A stretch of DNA of 44,607 nucleotides from Burkholderiales bacterium. GTDB taxonomy: Bacteria; Pseudomonadota; Gammaproteobacteria; Burkholderiales; SG8-39. Below, one piece after another: positions 1-7,837 of the stretch (within the stretch, counting starts at the first letter, position 1; the number at the start of each line of letters is the position of its first letter). The notes beneath the pieces were generated by a model. The model saw nothing but the letters and a program-made list of their open reading frames with translations, ran no database searches and was not told where the DNA came from. Location: NCBI GenBank assembly GCA_036390555.1, contig DASWBP010000031.1, positions 1 through 44,607 on the forward strand, in the 5' to 3' direction. The translations under genes were made by a program, and so were the position numbers.

Positions 1-340
1 CGAAGCTCGTGATCAGGTCGCCGAGGATGTGCGCGGCGAGGCCGAGCGCCGCCACGCCGTAAAGCGCGCGCCATCCGCGCGGTTCACGCAGGATCTTCGC
101 CAGCGCCCAGGAAAACACGAGCGCCCAGAACGGCAGAAGGATGAAGGAATGCGTGGGACCGCGGTGCTGCTCGAGGTAGAGCACCGGCGACACGAACGCG
201 AGCACGAAATCGAGGTCGGGCGCGGCGGCGGCGAAGAAGCCGGCAGCCACGCGCCGCGGGATGCTGCGCGGAGGCGCGTCCTTCGGCGCCGTCGCGCGCG
301 CGAGCAGCGCGCCAGACAACGCATGCGTCAGCGTGTCCAT
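1..340 (-). CDS. Membrane-bound metal-dependent hydrolase, YdjM/DUF457 family (5' part only; gene runs off the left edge)
   Basis: Absent from the ORF track because it leaves the window. Hand translation of the reverse strand from ATG 340..338 gives MDTLTHALSGALLARATAPKDAPPRSIPRRVAAGFFAAAAPDLDFVLAFVSPVLYLEQHRGPTHSFILLPFWA... This has the MDxLTH N-terminus and HRGxTHS motif I associate with DUF457. Third codon positions are G/C-rich. Confidence 0.7.
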   Translation of the reverse strand, partial: MDTLTHALSGALLARATAPKDAPPRSIPRRVAAGFFAAAAPDLDFVLAFVSPVLYLEQHRGPTHSFILLPFWALVFSWALAKILREPRGWRALYGVAALGLAAHILGDLITSF

Positions 341-341
341 A

Positions 342-392
342 TGGGGTCAGACCCCAAATTAGGCTCGCAAGCGAAAATGGGGTCTGACCCCG
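342..392. repeat. REP-like intercistronic palindromic element, copy 1 (two GGGGTCNGACCCC palindromes around a GGCTCGCAAG core)
   Basis: GGGGTCAGACCCC at 343..355 and GGGGTCTGACCCC at 379..391. Each is self-complementary and they also pair with each other (14 bp, 2 mismatches, 2 bp). A second copy lies at 17712..17764. This copy fills the whole gap between the aminotransferase stop (396..398) and the DUF457 start (340). Confidence 0.85.
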
Positions 393-395
393 ATT

Positions 396-1895
396 CTACG
401 CAGCCCTCTTTTTGCGCTGCGCGTCCTTGGCGTGCATCTGGGCGTAGGCGCCGTGCGCGGCGGACTCGGCATCGCCGACGTGCACCGGGTAGCCCATGTC
501 GTCGAGCACCGAGCCGAGCGCCGAGAGGCACAGCATCACGTTGTCCGGCCGGCAGGAGTAGCCCATCAGGCCGAAGCGCCAGATCTTGCCCTTCAGGGGC
601 CCGAGGCCCGCGCCGATCTCCAGTCCGAACTCCGAAAGCAGGCGCGAGCGCACCTGCGCCTCGTCCACGCCCTCGGGGCAGAGCACCGCGTTCATCTGCG
701 GCAGCTGGTACTCCACCTTGACGAGGAACTTGAGGCCCATCGCCTCGAGGCCCGCCTTGAGCGCCAGGTGGTGACGCTGGTGGCGCGCCCAGCAGTTCTC
801 CAGGCCTTCCTCGCGGATCAGCAGCAGCGCCTCGTGCAGGGCGAAGAGCGAGTTGGTGGGCGCGGTGTGATGGTAGGTGCGCGTGCCCGCGTTCCAGTAG
901 CCGAGCAGCAGGTTCATGTCCATGAACCAGCTGTGGATCTTGTCCTTGCGGCGCTTGACGTGCTCCACCACGCGCTCGGAGAAGGACACCGGCGAAAGCC
1001 CGGGCGTGCAGGACAGGCACTTCTGGCTCGCCGAGTAGATGGCGTCGATGTCCCACTCGTCCACCTTGACCGGCGTGCCGGCGAGCGAGGTCACGGCGTC
1101 GACGATGACGAGCGCGCCGTGCTTGTGCGCGATGCGCGTGAGCTCCTTCGCGTCGGACTGCGCGCCGGTGGAGGTCTCGGCGTGCACGAAGGCGACCACC
1201 CTCGCGCCCTTGTTCTTCTTCAGGGCGTCTTCCACCTTCTGCGGGTCGACGGGCTCGCCCCACTTGTCGTCCACCACGACCGGCGTGCCGCCGCAGCGGA
1301 TCACGTTCTCGAGCATGCGGCCGCCGAAAACGCCGTTCTGGCACACGATGACCTTGTCGCCGGGCGCCACCATGTTGACGAAGCAGAACTCCATGCCGAC
1401 CGACCCGGGACCGCTGAGCGGGAAGGTGAGCGGGTTCTTCGTCTGGTAGACATAGCGCAACAGCGATTTGAGCTCCTCCATCATCTCGACGAACACCGGG
1501 TCGAGGTAGCCGATCGCCGGCTGGCTCATGGTGGTGAGCACGCGCGGGTGGATCTCCGTGGGCCCCGGACCCATCAGCGTTCGCTGCGGCGGGTGGAAGG
1601 AGGTGATGCGCTTGGCGGGGGCGTACTGGGTCATGGCGGGGTTCTCCGGGCGGATGCCGAAGGGCGCGTCCTCGGGGCGCGACTTCACGCGCACCGGGTT
1701 CTTCGCGCTTGCTTCGTGGATGACGTCGGTGGCGCTGATGCGCCCCTGGGTGATGCGCTCGACCTCGCCGGCCCAGCGCGCCGGCACGTAGCCGGTCTTC
1801 ACCCAGTTGTGCACGACCGCGCGGTCCAGCTGGAAGGCGCGAGCCACCTCGGCCTGGCTGCCGAAGAGTTCGACCAGTTGCTCCGCGCAGTTCAT
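396..1895 (-). CDS. Class V aminotransferase (alanine/serine--glyoxylate aminotransferase family) with an in-frame N-terminal Cro/YdaS-like HTH extension
   Basis: 499-aa ORF. Residues 88-499 (MTQYAPAKR...LMGPGPTEIHPRVL...YSASQKCLSCTPG...) look like a complete AGXT-type PLP enzyme with the SxSQK lysine motif. Residues 1-62 (MNCAEQLVELFGSQAEVARAFQLDRAVVHNWVKTGYVPARWAGEVERITQGRI) match the single-HTH Cro/YdaS pattern. No stop codon separates the two parts. An alternative enzyme-only start is ATG 1634, preceded by GGAGAA 8 nt upstream (412 aa). Confidence 0.85.
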   Translation of the reverse strand: MNCAEQLVELFGSQAEVARAFQLDRAVVHNWVKTGYVPARWAGEVERITQGRISATDVIHEASAKNPVRVKSRPEDAPFGIRPENPAMTQYAPAKRITSFHPPQRTLMGPGPTEIHPRVLTTMSQPAIGYLDPVFVEMMEELKSLLRYVYQTKNPLTFPLSGPGSVGMEFCFVNMVAPGDKVIVCQNGVFGGRMLENVIRCGGTPVVVDDKWGEPVDPQKVEDALKKNKGARVVAFVHAETSTGAQSDAKELTRIAHKHGALVIVDAVTSLAGTPVKVDEWDIDAIYSASQKCLSCTPGLSPVSFSERVVEHVKRRKDKIHSWFMDMNLLLGYWNAGTRTYHHTAPTNSLFALHEALLLIREEGLENCWARHQRHHLALKAGLEAMGLKFLVKVEYQLPQMNAVLCPEGVDEAQVRSRLLSEFGLEIGAGLGPLKGKIWRFGLMGYSCRPDNVMLCLSALGSVLDDMGYPVHVGDAESAAHGAYAQMHAKDAQRKKRAA

Positions 1896-1906
1896 GCTGC
1901 GCGGAG
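1881..1906 (-). promoter_or_regulatory. 10-bp perfect hairpin with the HTH-ORF start codon in its 6-nt loop
   Basis: CTCCGCGCAG (1881..1890) / TTCATG loop (1891..1896, contains CAT = ATG 1895..1893) / CTGCGCGGAG (1897..1906). The arms are exact reverse complements. Confidence 0.4.
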
Positions 1907-1933
1907 TCTAAGCTGTCAAATCTACTTTGACAA
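1905..1933 (-). promoter_or_regulatory. Candidate sigma70 promoter overlapping a perfect operator-like palindrome TGTCAAA-N5-TTTGACA
   Basis: On the minus strand: -35 TTGTCA (1933..1928), 17-nt spacer, -10 TAGACT (1910..1905), then 9 nt to ATG 1895. The predicted TSS is only about 2-3 nt before the start codon. The palindrome TGTCAAA (1914..1920) / TCTAC / TTTGACA (1926..1932) covers the -35 and spacer. Confidence 0.4.
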
Positions 1934-2110
1934 GCGTAGTTTCGGCCTGGTGGGCGTGCGGTCCGGGCCCGCCTCCAGGCGCGCGAGGCGCCGCTCGTGC
2001 TCGAGGATGAACGCCTGGTGGTCGCGCAGCGTCGCGTGCATGTCGTTCAGGCGCTCGCGCAGCGTCGCCATGCCGGAGAGCCGGTCGAGGAGATCCTGGA
2101 TCAGGCTCAC
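1922..2110 (-). CDS. Hypothetical 62-aa coiled-coil protein, translationally coupled to the RHH gene
   Basis: GTG 2110..2108 overlaps the TGA 2109..2107 of the upstream gene (GTGA). Product: VSLIQDLLDRLSGMATLRERLNDMHATLRDHQAFILEHERRLARLEAGPDRTPTRPKLRLSK. Almost every third codon position is G/C, as in real genes here. I recognise no family. Confidence 0.5.
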   Translation of the reverse strand: MSLIQDLLDRLSGMATLRERLNDMHATLRDHQAFILEHERRLARLEAGPDRTPTRPKLRLSK

Positions 2111-2391
2111 TTGGCGGCCTCCTTGCGCAGCCTGCGCATCTCGCGCAGGAACGCGGCGTGGCTCTCGAGGATCGCGTCCGCCGTCTTCACCATCGCATCG
2201 ATCTCCTGCTTGGCGCGCCGCGTGGCGGCATCGAGCATCTCCACCTCCTGCAACGTGACGCCGGCGAGATAGGCGTCCACCGCCGAGCGGATCTCGGCGG
2301 CGACCTTGGTCTTCCTCTGCTGGGCGCGCCTGGCGAGACCCTGCTTCTGCTCGGGCGTGAGGTACACCATGGTGCTCTGCATGGCTTTCAT
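2107..2391 (-). CDS. Ribbon-helix-helix (CopG/Arc/MetJ-type) DNA-binding protein with a C-terminal helical extension
   Basis: 94 aa. The N-terminus MVYLTPEQKQGLARRAQQRKTKVAAEIRSAVDAYL has the beta-strand/helix/helix RHH pattern. A strong SD GAGGAGG (2404..2398) lies 6 nt before ATG 2391. GC3 is high. Confidence 0.7.
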   Translation of the reverse strand: MKAMQSTMVYLTPEQKQGLARRAQQRKTKVAAEIRSAVDAYLAGVTLQEVEMLDAATRRAKQEIDAMVKTADAILESHAAFLREMRRLRKEAAK

Positions 2392-2409
2392 CTGCGGCCT
2401 CCTCGCCGC

Positions 2410-2424
2410 ACATATATCATATGT
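2410..2424. promoter_or_regulatory. AT-rich operator-like palindrome ACATAT-ATC-ATATGT in the divergent RHH / TPP-enzyme control region
   Basis: Perfect 6-bp inverted repeat with a 3-bp spacer. It is the only AT-rich patch in the 78-bp divergent intergenic region (2392..2469) and lies 5 nt upstream of the RHH gene SD. Confidence 0.4.
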
Positions 2425-2469
2425 ATGTCATGAGAGCGACCCCTGGCGAGGCGGGTAGCATCTCGTGCC

Positions 2470-4191
2470 ATGCAGCCTTCGCATCCCGTGCAGTCCCAGC
2501 CCGCCACCGCCGCCGAGGCCTACCTGGGCCTGCTGGCCGCCCGCGGCGTCGAGTACCTGTTCGCCAACGGCGGCACCGACTTCGCGCCCGTCGTCGAAGC
2601 CTATGCCAGGGGCAAGACGCTCGGCTGGCACCTGCCCGAGCCGGTGATCGTGCCGCACGAGAACATGGGCGTCGCGATGGCGCACGGCTTCACCATGGTG
2701 AGCGGCCGTGCGCAGGCGATGATGGTGCACGTGGGCATGGGAACGGCGAACGCCGTCAACGGCCTGATCAACGCCGCGCGCATGAACATCCCGATGCTCT
2801 TTACCGCCGGGCGCACGCCGCTCACGGAATCGGGGGCCGTGCCGGGCGCGCGCAACAACTACATCCACTGGGCGCAGGAGCACTTCGACCAGGGCGCGAT
2901 GCTGCGCGAGTTCATGAAATGGGACTACGAGCTGCGGCACGCCGAGCAGGTCGAGACGGCGGTGGATCGCGCGCTCGCCATCGCGCGCAGCGAGCCGCAG
3001 GGGCCCGTCTACCTGACGCTGCCGCGCGAGATCCTCGCCTCGCCGTTTGCGGCCAGCATCTCGGCCGCCGCAACGCAGGTGGCCGCGAGTCCGCCCGGCG
3101 CCGACCCGGAGGCGCTCGAGGAGGCGGCGCGCCTGCTCGCGCGCGCCGAGCGGCCGCTGCTCATTACCGCAAACGCCGGCAGGACGGCAGATTCTGCGAA
3201 AGCGATCGCTCACCTTTGCGAGACGTTCGGCATTCCGGTGGTGCATTACCGGCCGCGCTATTTCGCGCTGTCCACCGAGCACCCGATGCACGCGGGCTGG
3301 GAGCCGCACGCGCTCGTGAGGGAGGCGGACCTCGTGCTCGTCGTCGAGTGCGACGTGCCCTGGATCCCTCAGCAGGGCGGCCCGGGCGCGCAGGCCAAGG
3401 TGATCCACATCGGCCCGGATCCGCTCTACGCGCGCTATCCGCTGCGCGGGTTTCGCACCGATATCGCGCTCGCCGGCCTCACGGCGCCCACCCTCGCGCA
3501 GCTCGCGGCGCGCGCGCTTGCGCACGCCCCCTTGGCGACAAAGCTCAAGTCGCGCTTCGAGGCCGGCGCGCAGCAATTCGCCGCCGCGCGCGCGAAGCAG
3601 CGCGGCGCGCCGCCGGCGATGGGCGCGAAGTACGCCTCGGCCTGCGTGAACCGGTTGCTCGACGCGGACACCATCGTCGTCAACGAGTATCCGCTGGTGC
3701 TCGAGGAGATGGTGGTGCGCGAGAGCTGCCGCTACTACGCGAGCGCGCCCGCCGGCGGCCTGGGCTGGGGGCTCGGCGCCGCGCTCGGCGCGAAGCTCGC
3801 CGCGCCGGAAAAGACCGTCGTCTGCTGCGTGGGCGACGGCGCCTACATGTTCGGCAACCCGACTGCCTCGCACTTCGTTTCCGAGGCGATGAAGCTGCCG
3901 GTGCTGTTCGTGGTGTTCAACAACGCGCGCTGGGCAGCGGTGCACCGCTCCACGCTCGCCATGTATCCCAAGGGCGTCGCCGCCGGCATGCAGGCCCCGC
4001 CGTTCGCCACGCTCGAGCCCTCGCCGCGCTTCGAGAAGGCCATCGAGGCGAGCGGCGGCTACGGCGTGCGCGTGGACAAGGCGCAAGACGTGATGCCCGC
4101 GCTCGAGCGCGCGCTCAGGGTCGTGAAGGAAGAAAAGCGCCAGGCGCTCGTCAACCTGCGCCTCGAGGCGAGCTACGTGAAGACGAGCTGA
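2470..4191 (+). CDS. Thiamine-pyrophosphate-requiring enzyme, acetolactate-synthase-large-subunit-like family (substrate unknown)
   Basis: 573 aa. The N-terminal TPP-pyrimidine domain is (AYLGLLAARGVEYLFANGGTDF...HENMGVAMAHGF). The C-terminal TPP-binding motif is GDGAYMFGNP...NN. Length and domain order fit the ALS/benzoylformate decarboxylase superfamily. Confidence 0.85.
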   Translation: MQPSHPVQSQPATAAEAYLGLLAARGVEYLFANGGTDFAPVVEAYARGKTLGWHLPEPVIVPHENMGVAMAHGFTMVSGRAQAMMVHVGMGTANAVNGLINAARMNIPMLFTAGRTPLTESGAVPGARNNYIHWAQEHFDQGAMLREFMKWDYELRHAEQVETAVDRALAIARSEPQGPVYLTLPREILASPFAASISAAATQVAASPPGADPEALEEAARLLARAERPLLITANAGRTADSAKAIAHLCETFGIPVVHYRPRYFALSTEHPMHAGWEPHALVREADLVLVVECDVPWIPQQGGPGAQAKVIHIGPDPLYARYPLRGFRTDIALAGLTAPTLAQLAARALAHAPLATKLKSRFEAGAQQFAAARAKQRGAPPAMGAKYASACVNRLLDADTIVVNEYPLVLEEMVVRESCRYYASAPAGGLGWGLGAALGAKLAAPEKTVVCCVGDGAYMFGNPTASHFVSEAMKLPVLFVVFNNARWAAVHRSTLAMYPKGVAAGMQAPPFATLEPSPRFEKAIEASGGYGVRVDKAQDVMPALERALRVVKEEKRQALVNLRLEASYVKTS

Positions 4192-4192
4192 C

Positions 4193-5407
4193 GTGACGGC
4201 GCAGACCCGGGGCTACCTCGCCGTCGCGATCGCGGCGGGCACGGTGTTCGCGCTGGGGCTGGGCATCCGCCAGGCGCAGCCGCTGTTCATCGGCCCGATC
4301 AATTCCGCGACCGGCATCGGCTATGCCTCGATCAGCCTCGCCTTTGCCGTGGGGCAGCTCATGTGGGGCATCGCGCAGCCGGTGGCCGGCGCGGTCGCCG
4401 ACCGCTGGGGGCCGCGGCCGGTGATGCTCGCGGGCGCCCTGCTCGTCGCCGCGGCGACAGCCGCCACGCCACTGGCCAGCACCACCGCGGCGCTGGTGCT
4501 GCTGGTCGGCGTGCTCTGCGCCGCGGGCGCGGGGGCGATCGGCCCGGCGCTGCTCATCTCTGCGGCGGCGCGCTGGATCCCGGAGGCGAAGCGCAACTTC
4601 GTCAACGGCATCGTCAACGCGGGCGGCTCCTTCGGCCAGTTCACCGTCATCCCGCTCGCGCAGCTGTTCATCGGGCTCGCGGGCTGGCAGCCGGCGCTCG
4701 TGATCCTCGGCGTGATCGGCCTCGCGACCATCCCGATCCTCCTTTGGATCACGCAGGGGCACGCCGAGCATGCGGCCACGGTGGCCAAGGCGCCGCCGGG
4801 CGCGCTCCAGAAGCAACTCGCGCAGGCCGCGCGCAATCCAAGCTACCTGCTCCTGAATGCGGGATTCTTCACCTGCGGCTTCCACGTCGCTTTCATCGCC
4901 ACCCACCTGCCCGGCGTGGTCGCGAGCTGCGAGCTGCCGCCCGCGGTGAGCGCCTGGTCGCTCGCCGTCATCGGACTGTTCAACATCTTCGGCAGCCTGT
5001 GGATCGGGCGCGTGATCACGCACCGGCGCATGAAGATGGCGCTCTCGGCACTGTACCTGTCGCGCGCGCTCATCATCGTGGCCTTCTTCTTCGCGCCGAA
5101 GACCGCGCTCACCTTCCTCGTCTTCGCCGCGGCGATCGGCTTTACCTACCTGTCGACCGTGCCGCCCACGGTCGGGCTGGTGATCAAGTTCTATGGCCCG
5201 CGCTACGTCGCGACGCTTTTCGGCGTGGTGATGCTCTCGCACCAGGTCGGCGCCTTCCTCGGGGCGTACCTGGGCGGCAAGGCGTTCGAAGCCACCGCGA
5301 GCTACGACTGGATGTGGTGGGCGGACGTGGCACTGTGCCTGATGGCCGCCGCGGTACACCTGCCCATCCGCGAAAGCCTGCCGTCAGCCGCACGCGCGGC
5401 CGTCTGA
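4193..5407 (+). CDS. MFS transporter
   Basis: 404 aa, about 12 hydrophobic segments. GTG start lies 1 nt after the TPP-enzyme stop (4189..4191). Has an MFS-like loop motif GAVADRWGPRP. Confidence 0.85.
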   Translation: MTAQTRGYLAVAIAAGTVFALGLGIRQAQPLFIGPINSATGIGYASISLAFAVGQLMWGIAQPVAGAVADRWGPRPVMLAGALLVAAATAATPLASTTAALVLLVGVLCAAGAGAIGPALLISAAARWIPEAKRNFVNGIVNAGGSFGQFTVIPLAQLFIGLAGWQPALVILGVIGLATIPILLWITQGHAEHAATVAKAPPGALQKQLAQAARNPSYLLLNAGFFTCGFHVAFIATHLPGVVASCELPPAVSAWSLAVIGLFNIFGSLWIGRVITHRRMKMALSALYLSRALIIVAFFFAPKTALTFLVFAAAIGFTYLSTVPPTVGLVIKFYGPRYVATLFGVVMLSHQVGAFLGAYLGGKAFEATASYDWMWWADVALCLMAAAVHLPIRESLPSAARAAV

Positions 5408-5460: not shown

Positions 5461-6408
5461 ATGCGCAAGACCAGGATCGTCGCATTCGCTTTCGGCGCAG
5501 CGCTCGCGTGCAGCGCGGCGCAGGCGCAGCAGCAGACCTGTTTCCCGTCGAAGTTCGGACCGAAGGACGAGATCGGCAACGCCAACCACATCACGCCGGA
5601 GAAGACGCTGCAGGCGGTGAAGACCGTCACCAAGGGCAAGAGCTACCGGCTCGGCATCGAGACCAACAAGGACACGCCGGCCTTCCCGCCGCGCAGCTTT
5701 TCGCTTGCCATCGTGCAGCCGGGCCAGCAGGCCGGCGGCACGCTCGGGCCCACGAAGACCACCTACAACGACGACATCATCATGGGCTGGGTGGGCATCG
5801 GCTCGCAGCTCGACGGCCTCGGGCACATCGGCATCGACAACGTCTACTACAACTGCAACAAGGCAGCCGAATTCGCGCAGGCCGGCGGGCTGACGAAGCT
5901 CGGCATCGAGAAGTTCCCCGCCTTCGCCACGCGCGGCATCCTGCTCGACATGGCGGGCTACTTCAAGACCGACATCGTCAAGGAAGGCACTCCCTTCAAC
6001 CGGGCGGAGATCGAAGGCGCGATGAAGCGCCAGGGCGTGAAGTCGATCGACAAAGGTGACGTGGTGTTGTTCTACACCGGCTGGACCAAGTTGATCGGCA
6101 AGGACAACAAGCGCTACGGCTCGGTCGAGCCCGGCTTGGGCGTCGGCGGTGCGAAGTACCTCGCCGAGCGCGGCGTGGCCGCCGTCGGTGCGGACACCTG
6201 GGGCCTCGAGGTGATTCCCTTCGAGCCGAACCAGGGCGTGTTCGAGGTCCACCAGATCCTGCTGCCGATGAACGGCATCTACATCCTGGAGAACATGAAT
6301 ACCGAGGAGATGGTAAAGGACCAGGCCTGGGAGTTCCTGTTCACGCTCGGGCCTTCGCGCATCACGGGCGCGGTGCAAGCGATCATCAACCCGATCGCCA
6401 TCAAGTAA
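5461..6408 (+). CDS. Secreted cyclase-family (kynurenine-formamidase fold) protein
   Basis: 315 aa. Sec signal peptide MRKTRIVAFAFGAALACSAAQA. Motifs GSQLDGLGH, GDVVLFYTGW and GADTWGLE are typical of the putative-cyclase family. SD AGGAGGGAG lies upstream of ATG 5461. Confidence 0.8.
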   Translation: MRKTRIVAFAFGAALACSAAQAQQQTCFPSKFGPKDEIGNANHITPEKTLQAVKTVTKGKSYRLGIETNKDTPAFPPRSFSLAIVQPGQQAGGTLGPTKTTYNDDIIMGWVGIGSQLDGLGHIGIDNVYYNCNKAAEFAQAGGLTKLGIEKFPAFATRGILLDMAGYFKTDIVKEGTPFNRAEIEGAMKRQGVKSIDKGDVVLFYTGWTKLIGKDNKRYGSVEPGLGVGGAKYLAERGVAAVGADTWGLEVIPFEPNQGVFEVHQILLPMNGIYILENMNTEEMVKDQAWEFLFTLGPSRITGAVQAIINPIAIK

Positions 6409-6445
6409 GTGATCGCGGCAGCAAGGTAATCGGGGCGGCGACCGT

Positions 6446-6473
6446 ACGCGTTTCCGGCAACGGATCAACGCGT
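6446..6473 (+). terminator. Candidate stem-loop downstream of the cyclase-family gene (GNRA-capped, no clear U-tract)
   Basis: ACGCGTT (6446..6452) pairs with AACGCGT (6467..6473). Inner stem TCCG/CGGA is capped by a GCAA tetraloop (6457..6460). It lies 38 nt after the TAA at 6406..6408. Only TT follows the stem. Confidence 0.3.
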
Positions 6474-6664
6474 TAGGCGGCGGCAGGCGGCTGGACCCGT
6501 CGCCGCCGCCCGCCGGCCGCAGCCCGGGCGCGCCACCGCGCGCAGCGCGCGCGGACGCGCGGACGCTTCCCATCGCGCGAGCCGATTGATAGTCTGCAAC
6601 GCCGCGGCGCGCACGGCGCGTGCCGCGTTTCCCGCACCCACCTGAGAGCCAAGGAGAGAAGGCC

Positions 6665-7837
6665 ATGAAGAACACCAGCAGAATGCTTGGCGGCGCGACG
6701 GCGCTGCTCGCAGCCGCCGCGCTTGCCGCCGGCGCCGCGCAGGCCGCCGGTCCGCGCCAGTCGATCGGCAAGAGCGAGGGACGCGTCGACATCGTCGCCT
6801 GGCCGGGCTACATCGAGCGCGGCGCGACCGACAAGAAATTCGACTGGGTGACGGGCTTCGAGAAGGCCAGCGGCTGCAAGGTGCAGGTGAAGACGGCGAA
6901 CACCTCCGACGAGATGGTGGCGCTGATGAACGAGGGCGGCTTCGACCTCGTGACCGCCTCGGGTGACGCGAGCCTGCGCCTGATCGCCGGCGGGCGCGTG
7001 CAGGAGATCAATCTCAAGCTCATCCCGAGCTACGGCAAGGTGGACAAGCGCCTGCAGAACGCGCCCTGGCACACGGTGGGCGGCAAGCACTACGGCGTGC
7101 CCTACCAGTGGGGCTACAACGTGCTCATGTACAACACCACCGTGTTCAAGGAAGCGCCCACCTCCTGGAACGTGGTGTTCGAAGAAATGAACCTGCCCGA
7201 TGGCAAGCCGAACAAGGGCCGCATCCAGGCCTTCGACGGGCCGATCTACATCGCCGACGCGGCGCTGTACCTGATGACCAAGAACCCGGCGCTCGGCATC
7301 AAGGACCCGTACGAGTTGAACGAGGACCAGTACAAGGCGGCGCTCGCGCTGCTGCGCCAGCAGCGAAAGCTCGTGGCGCGGTACTGGCACGACGCCTTCG
7401 TGCAGATCGACGACTTCACCAACGAAGGCTTCGTCGCCTCCTCGGCGTGGCAGTTCCAGGCGAACATCCTCAAGTCGAAGAACCGGCCGGTGGCAACCTC
7501 GGTGCCGAAGGAAGGGGTGACGGGATGGGCGGACACCACCATGATGCACGCCAACGCCAAGCACCCGAACTGCGCCTACAAGTGGCTCGAGCACTCGATC
7601 AACCCGAAGCTGCAGGGCGACCTCGCGGCCTGGTTCGGCTCGGTGCCGGCGCGCCTGGACGCGTGCAAGGGCAACCCGCTGCTCACCGACCAGGGCTGCG
7701 AGCGCCATGGCCTGGGCAGCTTCGACAAGATCCACTTCTGGCGCACGCCGGTCACCAATTGCAAGACGCAGGGCGGCAAGTGCGTGCCCTACTACCGCTG
7801 GGTGTCGGATTACATCGCGGTGCTCGGCGGCCGCTAG
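6665..7837 (+). CDS. ydcS: ABC transporter periplasmic polyamine (putrescine/spermidine)-binding protein, YdcS-like
   Basis: 390 aa counted from ATG 6665 (SD GGAGAG upstream). Signal peptide MKNTSRMLGGATALLAAAALAAGAAQA. Long collinear similarity to my recollection of E. coli YdcS (GRxDIxAWPGYIERG...DLVTASGDASLRLI...GPIYIADAAL...KEGVTGWADTTM). Confidence 0.85.
   Translation: MKNTSRMLGGATALLAAAALAAGAAQAAGPRQSIGKSEGRVDIVAWPGYIERGATDKKFDWVTGFEKASGCKVQVKTANTSDEMVALMNEGGFDLVTASGDASLRLIAGGRVQEINLKLIPSYGKVDKRLQNAPWHTVGGKHYGVPYQWGYNVLMYNTTVFKEAPTSWNVVFEEMNLPDGKPNKGRIQAFDGPIYIADAALYLMTKNPALGIKDPYELNEDQYKAALALLRQQRKLVARYWHDAFVQIDDFTNEGFVASSAWQFQANILKSKNRPVATSVPKEGVTGWADTTMMHANAKHPNCAYKWLEHSINPKLQGDLAAWFGSVPARLDACKGNPLLTDQGCERHGLGSFDKIHFWRTPVTNCKTQGGKCVPYYRWVSDYIAVLGGR

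Follow-up and report, generated by a model that had tools for sequence, protein, structure and literature searches.

Why should a metabolic enzyme of an uncultured Burkholderiales bacterium begin with a DNA-binding domain of phage type, is the junction between the two real, and what would such a protein bind? These questions are raised by a 499-aa ORF at positions 396..1895 of the minus strand in the window, that is, the whole 44,607-nt stretch of DNA analysed here. The first-pass annotation had described this frame as running without a stop through all of its parts, and on re-reading it was found intact, initiated by ATG and free of internal stops; one polypeptide joins a Cro/YdaS-type helix-turn-helix (HTH) domain, a conserved basic motif, a variable hinge and a class V aminotransferase. 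The start codon of this long form is at 1893..1895(-), with 3-10 open codons upstream, and in all loci compared an ATG or GTG is found at, or slightly 5' of, this position, followed by a conserved MNCAERLV N-terminus. At the other end, the stop codon (396..398(-)) is followed 5 nt later by a terminator-like hairpin (GGGGTCAGACCCC, 379..391(-)) and ATTTT. The neighbours are housekeeping genes, encoding a TPP protein and an MFS transporter or resembling ttcA, metF and ahcY, and an Rfam scan of positions 1..3000 of the window returned no RNA families. Public annotation of the gene names the enzyme only and ignores the HTH.

The identity of the N-terminal domain (residues 1-66; 1698..1895(-)) was established by Pfam, AlphaFold2 (AF2) and Foldseek. 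Residues 1-62 had been read by eye as a Cro/YdaS-type HTH, and profile searches bear this out: residues 1-87 alone match YdaS_toxin PF15943 at 40.0 bits (gathering threshold 30) and P22_Cro PF14549 at 32.0 bits (gathering threshold 30.2), the latter dropping to 27.7 bits, below its gathering threshold, in the full-length protein. The Pfam matches of the region are YdaS, P22_Cro, NinH and HTH_17, with no GntR match in the same search, and among phage families PHROG 409 (transcriptional regulator) ranks first. The AF2 model of the domain has a pLDDT of ~90 over residues 1-65 and contains five helices (3-11, 14-21, 25-34, 39-48 and 55-65). In a Foldseek search this prediction matched Xfaso-1 Cro (3bd1) first, with a TM-score of 0.85 on the target and an rmsd of 1.4 Å, followed by N15 Cro, P22 Cro and YdaS (6on0, 2hin, 1rzs, 8co2); the N15 Cro structure among these is a DNA-bound one. 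The domain is predicted to have the all-alpha, five-helix fold of Cro and lambda-repressor-like proteins, and members of the YdaS family have been shown by experiment to be Cro-like operator binders (PMC8630535). The fusion protein also has a near-threshold NCBIfam match to a 'carph-isopro domain' (35 vs 38 bits), a term of which no mention was found in the literature. A homolog search with the N-terminus only, of a kind blind to other architectures, returned 165 short candidates that are fragments of the fusion family.

The remainder of the protein, residues 88-499 (412 aa; 399..1634(-)), belongs to the AGXT family of class V aminotransferases by both Pfam and PDB matches. In a search with the whole protein, Aminotran_5 (PF00266) scores 77 bits over residues 136-430, against 22 bits over a partial stretch for the class I/II family PF00155. 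The best PDB match is the alanine-glyoxylate aminotransferase 1vjo (359 bits, residues 100-464), then PucG 3isl and UGXT 3nnk; whole-enzyme matches range from 359 to 250 bits, all PDB relatives are AGXT-type, and none of the 35 covers residues 1-95. The SASQK lysine, named when this part was first read as a complete AGXT-type PLP enzyme, is K292 (1020..1022(-)). Aligned with human AGT, the enzyme has K292 in the place of the Schiff-base lysine K209, D266 in that of D183 (the Asp on the pyridine nitrogen), Y341/T344 in that of Y260/T263 (YHHT) and R440 in that of R360 (the Arg for the carboxylate). No NCBIfam equivalog threshold was reached, the best being BhcA at 210 vs 650, with others at 198 vs 600 and 180 vs 361. 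Judged by its residues, the enzyme part is apparently catalytically competent and of the glyoxylate/pyruvate-linked AGXT family. Class V aminotransferases are obligate homodimers, as established for AGT and PucG, and from these solved relatives the fusion enzyme is assumed to form a homodimer as well. The full-length AF2 monomer model, with a pLDDT of 62 from a shallow alignment, is too poor to show inter-domain contacts or the reach of the HTH.

Between the two domains a 25-residue linker had been proposed, but this stretch is not uniform. Directly C-terminal to the HTH, residues 65-74 (KNPVRVKSRP; 1674..1703(-)) form an invariant basic motif, in which K65, P67, V68, R69, K71, S72, R73 and P74 are unchanged across 38 sequences and which is kept in a divergent subclade as well; the motif has a dN/dS of 0.15 and is predicted by AF2 to be disordered. 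It could be a DNA-contacting arm or a docking peptide, both of which are possible. Residues 75-87 (1635..1673(-)), in contrast, are a variable hinge of low pLDDT that differs among relatives in sequence and in length, with a dN/dS of 0.18.

An obvious concern with a chimera of this kind is that two separate genes were joined by an indel in this one contig. The comparison that bears on this covered 153 distinct loci from species-representative genomes, at 75.6-96% identity, the genome hits numbering more than 580; all carriers are uncultured MAGs of soil and groundwater Burkholderiales, and most were assembled from short reads (MEGAHIT/SPAdes). All 153 loci contain a single in-frame ORF, PF15943 and PF00266 occur together in 120 of the 120 best protein clusters, and in two sets of species-genome loci a single in-frame HSP extends from residue 1 in 80/80 and 79/80 cases, with the stop or frameshift that might have separated the parts in orthologous loci absent. 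Indels in the hinge and linker are of whole codons only, the reading frame is kept through at least 5 distinct indel patterns, and the dN/dS of the HTH (0.15) is close to that of the enzyme (0.14). What speaks for separate genes is a lone HTH protein of ~87 aa in a few database entries (P0215, P0183 and P0154), but in several of these 'short' proteins the tail is the N-terminal part of the aminotransferase read in another frame, and the fusion is in frame in 153 independent loci. Two of the split copies were rejected individually: that of P0183 (locus L002) has a frameshift inside the enzyme as well, and that of P0215 (locus L001), from a subclade that is itself fused, carries additional bases in the N-terminal part of the aminotransferase, and its HTH and enzyme share one overall frame. 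Broken or error-ridden assemblies account for the few copies that look split. An assembly or annotation artefact is refuted, with a joining indel retaining practically no probability, and the HTH-aminotransferase fusion is real and of ancient date in its clade, with purifying selection acting on both of its parts.

The junction retains a second potential start. Met88 (1632..1634(-)), where translation of the aminotransferase began ancestrally, is a candidate initiation site for a 412-aa product, and the SD-like GGAGAA that the first-pass annotation had noted upstream of it is present at 1642..1647(-), with a spacing of 7 nt rather than the 8 nt first given. The Met88 codon is ATG in 78 of 81 loci, the other three having GTG there or an ATG 1-2 codons later, and all 79 loci of the divergent set have a start-capable codon at the junction. 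Predicted pairing with the anti-SD before this codon reaches -6 kcal/mol or better in 54% of loci, vs 10.6% of background codon positions, and -4 kcal/mol or better throughout the divergent set (100%). About one third of the close loci have a weak SD before Met88, and an SD-like site at Met386 scores as high as that of Met88 by coding accident. An enzyme-only isoform of 412 aa from the junction start is plausible, and the SD signal counts in its favour but does not decide the matter.

Upstream of the first ATG lies a sigma-70-type promoter (1905..1933(-)), with a -35 element TTGTCA at 1933..1928, a 17-nt spacer and a -10 element TAGACT at 1910..1905; it is the one promoter-like site found in 250..2500, where 0.1 is expected. 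A TAnnnT -10 occurs at the same fixed offset in 144 of the 153 loci, and because the start codon is no more than 10 nt from this -10 in about two thirds of them (98/144), an mRNA that is leaderless or nearly so is implied for most loci. In the window copy 9 nt lie between the -10 and the ATG, with transcription predicted to start at ~1898 and to leave a 5' UTR of ~3 nt, and no SD is found 5' of the first ATG. Leaderless translation has been documented for the immunity-region repressor genes cI and paaR2 (PMC8630535). In a subclade with a longer leader, some members have a GAGAA-type SD before the first ATG, and only 24% of the longer leaders pair with the anti-SD at -4 kcal/mol or better.

These features of the two starts bear on the possibility that only the 412-aa enzyme matters and that the 87 codons before it are a translated leader or a relic without a DNA-binding role. 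In Proteobacteria translation often initiates poorly on leaderless mRNAs, both the junction ATG and the SD before it have been retained, and the name under which the gene is deposited is that of the enzyme alone. We nevertheless regard this as very improbable, since the HTH is constrained as strongly as the enzyme and in frame with it through repeated indels, its Cro fold is predicted confidently, and the longer-leader subclade includes members that carry an SD for the first ATG, infrequent as strong pairing is among those leaders.

If the HTH is functional, a site for it is close at hand. Over the -35 and most of the spacer lies a 19-bp palindrome (TGTCAAAGTAGATTTGACA, 1914..1932), with arms TGTCAAA and TTTGACA around GTAGA, that is a candidate operator. 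Flagged at first in this one sequence, it proves to be kept over the promoter in 153 of 153 distinct loci (consensus TGTCAAA-N5-TTTGACA), with at least 7 of the 9 symmetric pairs in 131 of them, and it has no second copy in the 44.6-kb window with up to 3 mismatches allowed, 0 being expected by chance. To our knowledge it has no convincing match among CRP/FNR, LexA or GntR-type boxes. The right arm is TTTGTCA in about one quarter of the loci, which breaks one symmetric pair.

A palindrome over a promoter may owe its conservation to the promoter itself. On one of its strands each arm can be read as a near-consensus -35 (TTGACA), the left arm giving TTGTCA on the top strand and TTGACA on the other, and in several loci (L017, L032, L060 and L075) a divergent gene with a plausible -10 begins ~25-30 nt upstream, so the promoter, and in some loci a divergent one as well, could account for part of the conservation. 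Taken further, the palindrome would be mainly a promoter element, with back-to-back -35s serving this gene and divergent neighbours, or else the site of another regulator, and the fused HTH would act elsewhere; in locus L184, where the fusion gene is not nearby, an MFS transporter has a similar palindrome ahead of it. Yet the right arm lies within the promoter spacer, 3 nt from the -10, where it cannot serve as the -35 of that element, and it has maximal information content like the left arm, which points beyond the promoter because a sigma-70 spacer needs no specific sequence. The palindrome also accompanies the gene when this is found in a different genomic setting (L086), and persists where the gene upstream runs in the same direction or is another gene altogether (the window, L086).

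The distribution of the palindrome argues in the same direction. Unfused homologs, at most 58% identical and beginning near the internal ATG, lack both the HTH and an upstream palindrome. Among the 120 exact matches listed in a genome-wide search, 36 precede the fusion gene, and of the rest only 5 are in DNA with a GC content of 58% or more; no second palindrome was seen in carrier genomes among the matches listed, nor in the 44.6-kb window. On these grounds we hold it improbable that the palindrome is chiefly a promoter element or a foreign site. An origin of the HTH from an adjacent regulator gene was considered separately and rejected, as no HTH gene lies upstream of the closest homologs without the fusion.

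Self-repression is the most likely role of the fusion because it is always found behind this conserved palindromic promoter site, and a palindrome so placed fits autoregulation. We consider it reasonably probable that the protein is a Cro-tethered, active AGXT-family aminotransferase whose dimer pairs two Cro domains and represses its own promoter. A domesticated phage-type Cro/YdaS HTH would be tethered to the aminotransferase through the basic motif and the flexible hinge; class V aminotransferases being obligate homodimers, the enzyme would present two Cro domains, which could bind the two half-sites, ~12 bp apart, of the 19-bp palindrome, and the occupied palindrome would block RNA polymerase on a mostly leaderless, apparently monocistronic transcript. 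More weakly, the junction ATG and SD may also yield an enzyme-only isoform, and the ligand or cofactor state of the enzyme might modulate repression, in which case the protein would be a 'trigger enzyme'. At the level of sequence, one polypeptide does contain both a DNA-binding domain and an apparently competent catalytic domain.

All-alpha Cro proteins such as P22 and N15 Cro are weak dimers on their own, so a dimeric partner could be advantageous in itself. It is possible, if on the whole unlikely, that the HTH binds the palindrome with no sensing of metabolites, the enzyme being a dimerisation scaffold and the outcome a homeostatic negative feedback on enzyme dosage. The structural and operator evidence fits this equally well as it fits sensing and nothing separates it from a ligand-modulated version, but it is a sub-case of the Cro-tethered autorepressor and does not compete with the claim about architecture. 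A more elaborate scheme, which we regard as doubtful, would have two products made from the leaderless mRNA, a scarce 499-aa Cro-enzyme begun at its 5'-terminal ATG and, in abundance, the 412-aa enzyme begun at the junction ATG behind its SD, with only long/long dimers, carrying two HTHs, able to repress. The isoform ratio would then set promoter occupancy, and the catalytic state (PLP/PMP, bound glyoxylate or amino donor) could add a second input; if true, a domesticated phage Cro would here have become part of a self-contained feedback device that responds to both stoichiometry and metabolism.

Whichever form the feedback takes, the fusion is fixed in at least 153 species-level genomes of Burkholderiales that are uncultured and abundant in soil and groundwater, together with a candidate operator, a promoter and a possible dual start. 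It offers a compact, directly testable system for phage-regulator domestication and for how an obligate enzyme dimer could stand in for Cro dimerisation, and poses the further question of whether an aminotransferase reports glyoxylate or amino-acid status to its own promoter. No description of an architecture combining a Cro-type HTH and a class V aminotransferase was found in the searchable literature, and among the classical trigger enzymes we know of none that joins a Cro-type HTH to an aminotransferase.

The separate parts have close relatives. P22 Cro, N15 Cro, Xfaso-1 Cro and CP-933P YdaS share fold and Pfam families with the fusion HTH, and stand-alone phage proteins of this type bind palindromic operators of ~17-21 bp over promoters, comparable to the candidate 19-bp palindrome here. 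They are proteins of ~60-75 aa encoded in prophage immunity regions, whereas the present domain opens a chromosomal metabolic enzyme of 499 aa whose neighbours are housekeeping genes. The enzyme shares its catalytic residues with 1vjo, PucG (3isl), HpxJ (3nnk) and human AGT and has a C-terminal extension as in PucG/UGXT, and the N-terminal 95 residues are what sets it apart from these solved AGXT-type structures.

Among regulators built on enzyme folds, the MocR/GabR/PdxR proteins of the GntR subfamily likewise consist of an N-terminal HTH, a linker and a dimerising fold-type I PLP domain, and their binding to repeats close to their own promoter or a neighbouring one is controlled by PLP or ligand chemistry (see PMC6677901). 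As the first-pass annotation had anticipated, the architecture differs: MocR proteins join a GntR winged HTH to a class I/II AAT-like domain (PF00155) in which catalysis is usually lost (see PMC6677901 for the architecture), whereas the present family has a Cro/YdaS HTH and a class V domain with all catalytic residues kept. In BzdR of the betaproteobacterium Azoarcus an Xre/lambda-repressor-type HTH is again linked to an enzyme fold and represses a promoter, but there the partner is a non-catalytic, shikimate-kinase-like sensor and the target a catabolic operon (PMC3602430), as opposed to an apparently active aminotransferase whose apparent target is its own gene.

Recruitment of a DNA-binding domain by an enzyme is the textbook route proposed for the origin of one-component regulators, and few natural cases keep the enzyme fully intact. 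PutA, BirA, NadR and archaeal RbkR repress genes of their own pathways, often including their own gene. In each an active enzyme is fused to a DNA-binding domain, as here, with other folds and enzyme classes involved, for instance an RHH with proline dehydrogenase/P5CDH in PutA and a winged HTH with biotin ligase in BirA (for RbkR, see PMC5397151). Beside them the present family is one more case with an intact enzyme, in a combination of which the searchable literature gave no example, an all-alpha Cro domain with a class V AGXT-type aminotransferase.

The minus strand from 396 to 1895 holds a 499-codon ORF with zero internal stops, and the first-pass annotation, which described it as a helix-turn-helix (HTH) domain joined to a class V aminotransferase without a stop between them, is borne out by the translation and by Pfam matches. 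When residues 1-87 are searched alone, two families score above gathering, YdaS_toxin (PF15943, 40.0 bits versus 30) and P22_Cro (PF14549, 32.0 bits versus 30.2), and the whole protein matches Aminotran_5 (PF00266) with 77 bits. The top match of the enzyme part is Nostoc alanine-glyoxylate aminotransferase (1vjo, 359 bits), with further matches to PucG, ureidoglycine-glyoxylate aminotransferase and mammalian AGT. Alignment to relatives shows that the aminotransferase part retains the Schiff-base lysine, the Asp, the YHHT motif and the carboxylate-binding Arg; it therefore looks catalytically competent. Scores against the nearest NCBIfam models (BhcA, 210 with an equivalog cut-off of 650; pyridoxamine-pyruvate transaminase, 198 with 600; PhnW, 180 with 361) lie far under every cut-off, giving no equivalog assignment.

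The HTH-aminotransferase fusion is real. PF15943 and PF00266 occur together in 120 of the 120 best protein clusters (86-96% identity, about 498-512 aa), which derive from JGI, ENA, NCBI and Logan assemblies. In a first genome scan, with one genome per GTDB species, residues 1-499 form a single in-frame segment in all of the best 80 of 587 relatives, and when an 80%-identical member served as the query for a second scan, 79 of 80 loci gave one in-frame HSP beginning at residue 1, a contig end truncating the other; the suggested comparison of orthologs thus turned up no stop or frameshift between the two parts. Removal of duplicates left 153 distinct loci with 75.6-96% identity to the window protein, most of them in MEGAHIT or SPAdes short-read assemblies. 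Several distinct insertions and deletions occur in the hinge between the domains, always of whole codons, and dN/dS (Nei-Gojobori, 400 random pairs) is 0.15 for the HTH, 0.15 for the basic motif that follows it, 0.18 for the hinge and 0.14 for the enzyme. At the protein level the HTH is therefore conserved no less strictly than the enzyme.

Candidates for an unfused arrangement were rejected. Locus L002, a long-read MAG, has two frame changes, one of them inside the enzyme. In locus L001 a TGA follows the HTH, yet the aminotransferase N-terminus also contains stray additional bases; the HTH and enzyme of L001 share the same overall frame, and three proteins of its divergent subclade (P0225, P0236 and P0202) read straight through from HTH to enzyme. 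In several short database proteins considered as stand-alone HTHs, the last residues come from reading the aminotransferase N-terminus out of frame.

Essentially a single cluster (P0241), fragments aside, represents the fused form in a library clustered at 50% identity. Relatives beyond it (58% identity, 52% and so on) are 395-415 aa long and alignable only from residue ~98 on, with no HTH domain in the protein and no HTH gene upstream, which therefore points to one fusion event, in a single lineage of uncultured Burkholderiales/Betaproteobacteria. This lineage inhabits soil, groundwater and lakes, and no cultured carrier is found among the 160 loci listed from both scans. Public protein names mention the enzyme alone and ignore the HTH.

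The AF2 model of residues 1-100 consists of five helices, with pLDDT about 90 to residue 65, and then a disordered tail. Its best PDB matches by Foldseek are all-alpha Cro proteins: Xfaso-1 Cro (3bd1; TM 0.85 normalised on the target, rmsd 1.4 A), N15 Cro free and bound to operator DNA (2hin, 6on0) and P22 Cro (1rzs), with the YdaS N-domain (8co2) lower. Searches with the HTH found phage YdaS/Cro-like proteins of up to 41% identity in a viral library, and 'transcriptional regulator' families in PHROGs. Pfam's 'toxin' label is misleading, because YdaS has been shown to bind operators and to act like lambda Cro (PMC8630535). NCBIfam NF046037, 'carph-isopro', gives a near-threshold match to residues 4-50 (~1746..1886; 35.1 versus 38 bits); no description of it was found in the searchable literature, and its name hints at a Cro-like domain carried by other proteins.

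The stretch between HTH and enzyme had been read as a 25-residue linker. Residues 75-87 are indeed a truly variable hinge, but residues 65-74, directly after the HTH (K65-NPVRVKSRP-74; 1674..1703, minus strand), are an invariant basic motif, which could be an additional DNA-contacting arm or a docking element. Also conserved is the C-terminal tail (...KDAQRKKRAA; 399..428, about the last 10 residues), which lies outside recognised domains and in which K495 and K496 are invariant. Either the basic motif or the RKKR tail could touch DNA.

The enzyme part has, as noted at first pass and confirmed in the sequence, its own ATG (Met88; 1634..1632, minus strand). An SD-like GGAGAA lies 7 nt, rather than 8, upstream of it (1647..1642). 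This codon is ATG in 78 of 81 close loci, the three exceptions having GTG there or ATG 1-2 codons later, and a start-capable codon occupies the junction in 79 of 79 divergent loci. That this Met stays invariant while the hinge around it varies, and that unfused homologs begin at the same place, suggests that a start codon has been kept. A purine tract 5' of Met88 persists despite differing hinge peptides (PENPAM, SESDPM, PGNDAM, SGKEAM); 54% of close loci reach a predicted anti-SD pairing of <= -6 kcal/mol, versus 10.6% of background positions, and all divergent loci reach <= -4 kcal/mol at the junction. About one close locus in three gives a weak signal, and a coding accident gives Met386 a score as high as that of Met88. 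An enzyme-only isoform starting at Met88 is plausible.

Upstream of the fusion gene lies the palindrome TGTCAAAGTAGATTTGACA (1914..1932), and TGTCAAA-N5-TTTG(A/T)CA is found there in 153 of 153 loci, at least 7 of 9 symmetric pairs being retained in 131. Of the right arms, 77 read TTTGACA, 27 read TTTGTCA and the remainder are single-base variants; a TAnnnT hexamer follows 3 nt past the arm in 144 of 153. Left arm and hexamer form, in the window, TTGTCA-17 nt-TAGACT, the only sigma-70-like promoter that a scan found in 250..2500 (0.1 expected). Information content is maximal over both arms and low in the surroundings; the right arm lies in the spacer, a region whose sequence a promoter does not dictate, and its invariance there argues for a site bound by protein. 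The palindrome is missing upstream of unfused homologs, has no second copy in the window with 3 mismatches allowed, and accompanies the fusion gene in a different neighbourhood, between dcd and a TetR gene, in locus L086. Genome-wide, the fusion gene lies downstream of 36 of 120 exact matches among those listed; nearly all the others are in AT-rich genomes, with only 5 in DNA of >=58% GC among the matches listed.

The first in-frame start lies <=10 nt from the -10 in 98 of 144 loci (9 nt in the window), without an SD, which implies a leaderless or nearly leaderless mRNA. One subclade has a 15-25-nt leader, with a GAGAA-type SD in some members; only 24% of longer leaders pair at <= -4 kcal/mol.

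In four loci (L017, L032, L060 and L075), about 25-35 nt upstream of the palindrome, the start codon of the divergent upstream gene lies 5 nt past TATGAT, TAAAAT or TATCAT, and 15 nt ahead of that hexamer is the TTGACA that the left palindrome arm carries on the bottom strand. In these loci the palindrome may therefore serve a pair of back-to-back promoters, both apparently leaderless. In locus L184, on a contig of 72% GC, a similar palindrome-plus-promoter (TTGTCAATGCTTCGTTGACAtacTAGGCT, 5643..5671) precedes an MFS transporter gene (5775..6953) that is 50% identical to the window MFS gene (4193..5407), with no fusion gene within 8 kb; this transporter family is a divergent neighbour of the fusion gene in at least 11 loci, and the site could be fortuitous or could hint that a regulatory site is shared. 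Three identical ~100-nt copies containing TTGTCAAGGCGTCCTTGACAacaTAGCGT (L103, L119 and L159; CBDCDS010000003.1, a Gammaproteobacteria MAG), two of them followed by the same 230-aa ORF, suggest a repeated mobile element unrelated to the fusion.

Between the fusion operator and a divergent TPP-enzyme gene sit two small co-directional ORFs (1922..2391, minus strand) of 94 aa (2107..2391) and 61 aa (1922..2107), with overlapping stop and start codons (GTGA) and no significant family match. Other loci have a RES-toxin/Xre-antitoxin-like pair (clusters 18 and 12) at this position, so small TA-like modules seem to insert preferentially in the region upstream of the operator. The divergent genes (2470..5407, plus strand) encode a TPP-requiring protein (PRK08327 equivalog, uncharacterised; 672 bits) followed by an MFS transporter of the oxalate/formate or lactate type; the two (clusters 2 and 10) recur as divergent neighbours in many loci and may hint at a small-organic-acid or glyoxylate pathway tied to the aminotransferase. 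Upstream neighbours vary; on the downstream side, a YdjM-like gene runs in the same direction in 46 loci. Past the fusion stop codon comes a terminator-like hairpin. In the interval from that codon to the ATG of the following gene at 339 (342..392, minus strand) lie inverted 14-nt GC-rich copies, GGGGTCAGACCCCA and TGGGGTCTGACCCC, with a gap of about 21 nt; the first, with its T-run, is the predicted terminator, and together they could form a longer hairpin or REP-like element.

AGXT-type enzymes are obligate homodimers in solved relatives, and all-alpha Cro proteins bind palindromic operators as dimers yet dimerise weakly alone. A fusion of such parts would give one dimeric particle a pair of HTHs, on tethers of about 20-35 residues that would suit a 19-bp palindrome. 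As the palindrome covers the -35 and the spacer, the predicted outcome of binding is autorepression. In MocR/GabR and PutA, binding is modulated by substrate or cofactor state, and the same might hold for the fusion protein.

As a concept, a DNA-binding domain on an enzyme fold controlling its own gene is known already. PutA, BirA and NadR combine a DNA-binding domain with an enzyme and regulate their own genes, and a DNA-binding domain on an enzyme fold is likewise described for MocR/GabR (PMC6677901), RbkR (PMC5397151) and BzdR (PMC3602430). No description of a YdaS/Cro plus class V aminotransferase protein was found in the full-text literature searched, most subscription journals being outside it, and the architecture is already present, unremarked, in sequence databases with precomputed Pfam hits. 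As the first-pass annotation held, it differs from that of MocR/GabR/PdxR: with neither a GntR winged HTH nor a class I/II domain, the fusion protein is not a MocR, and it is unlike a stand-alone prophage Cro in behaviour.
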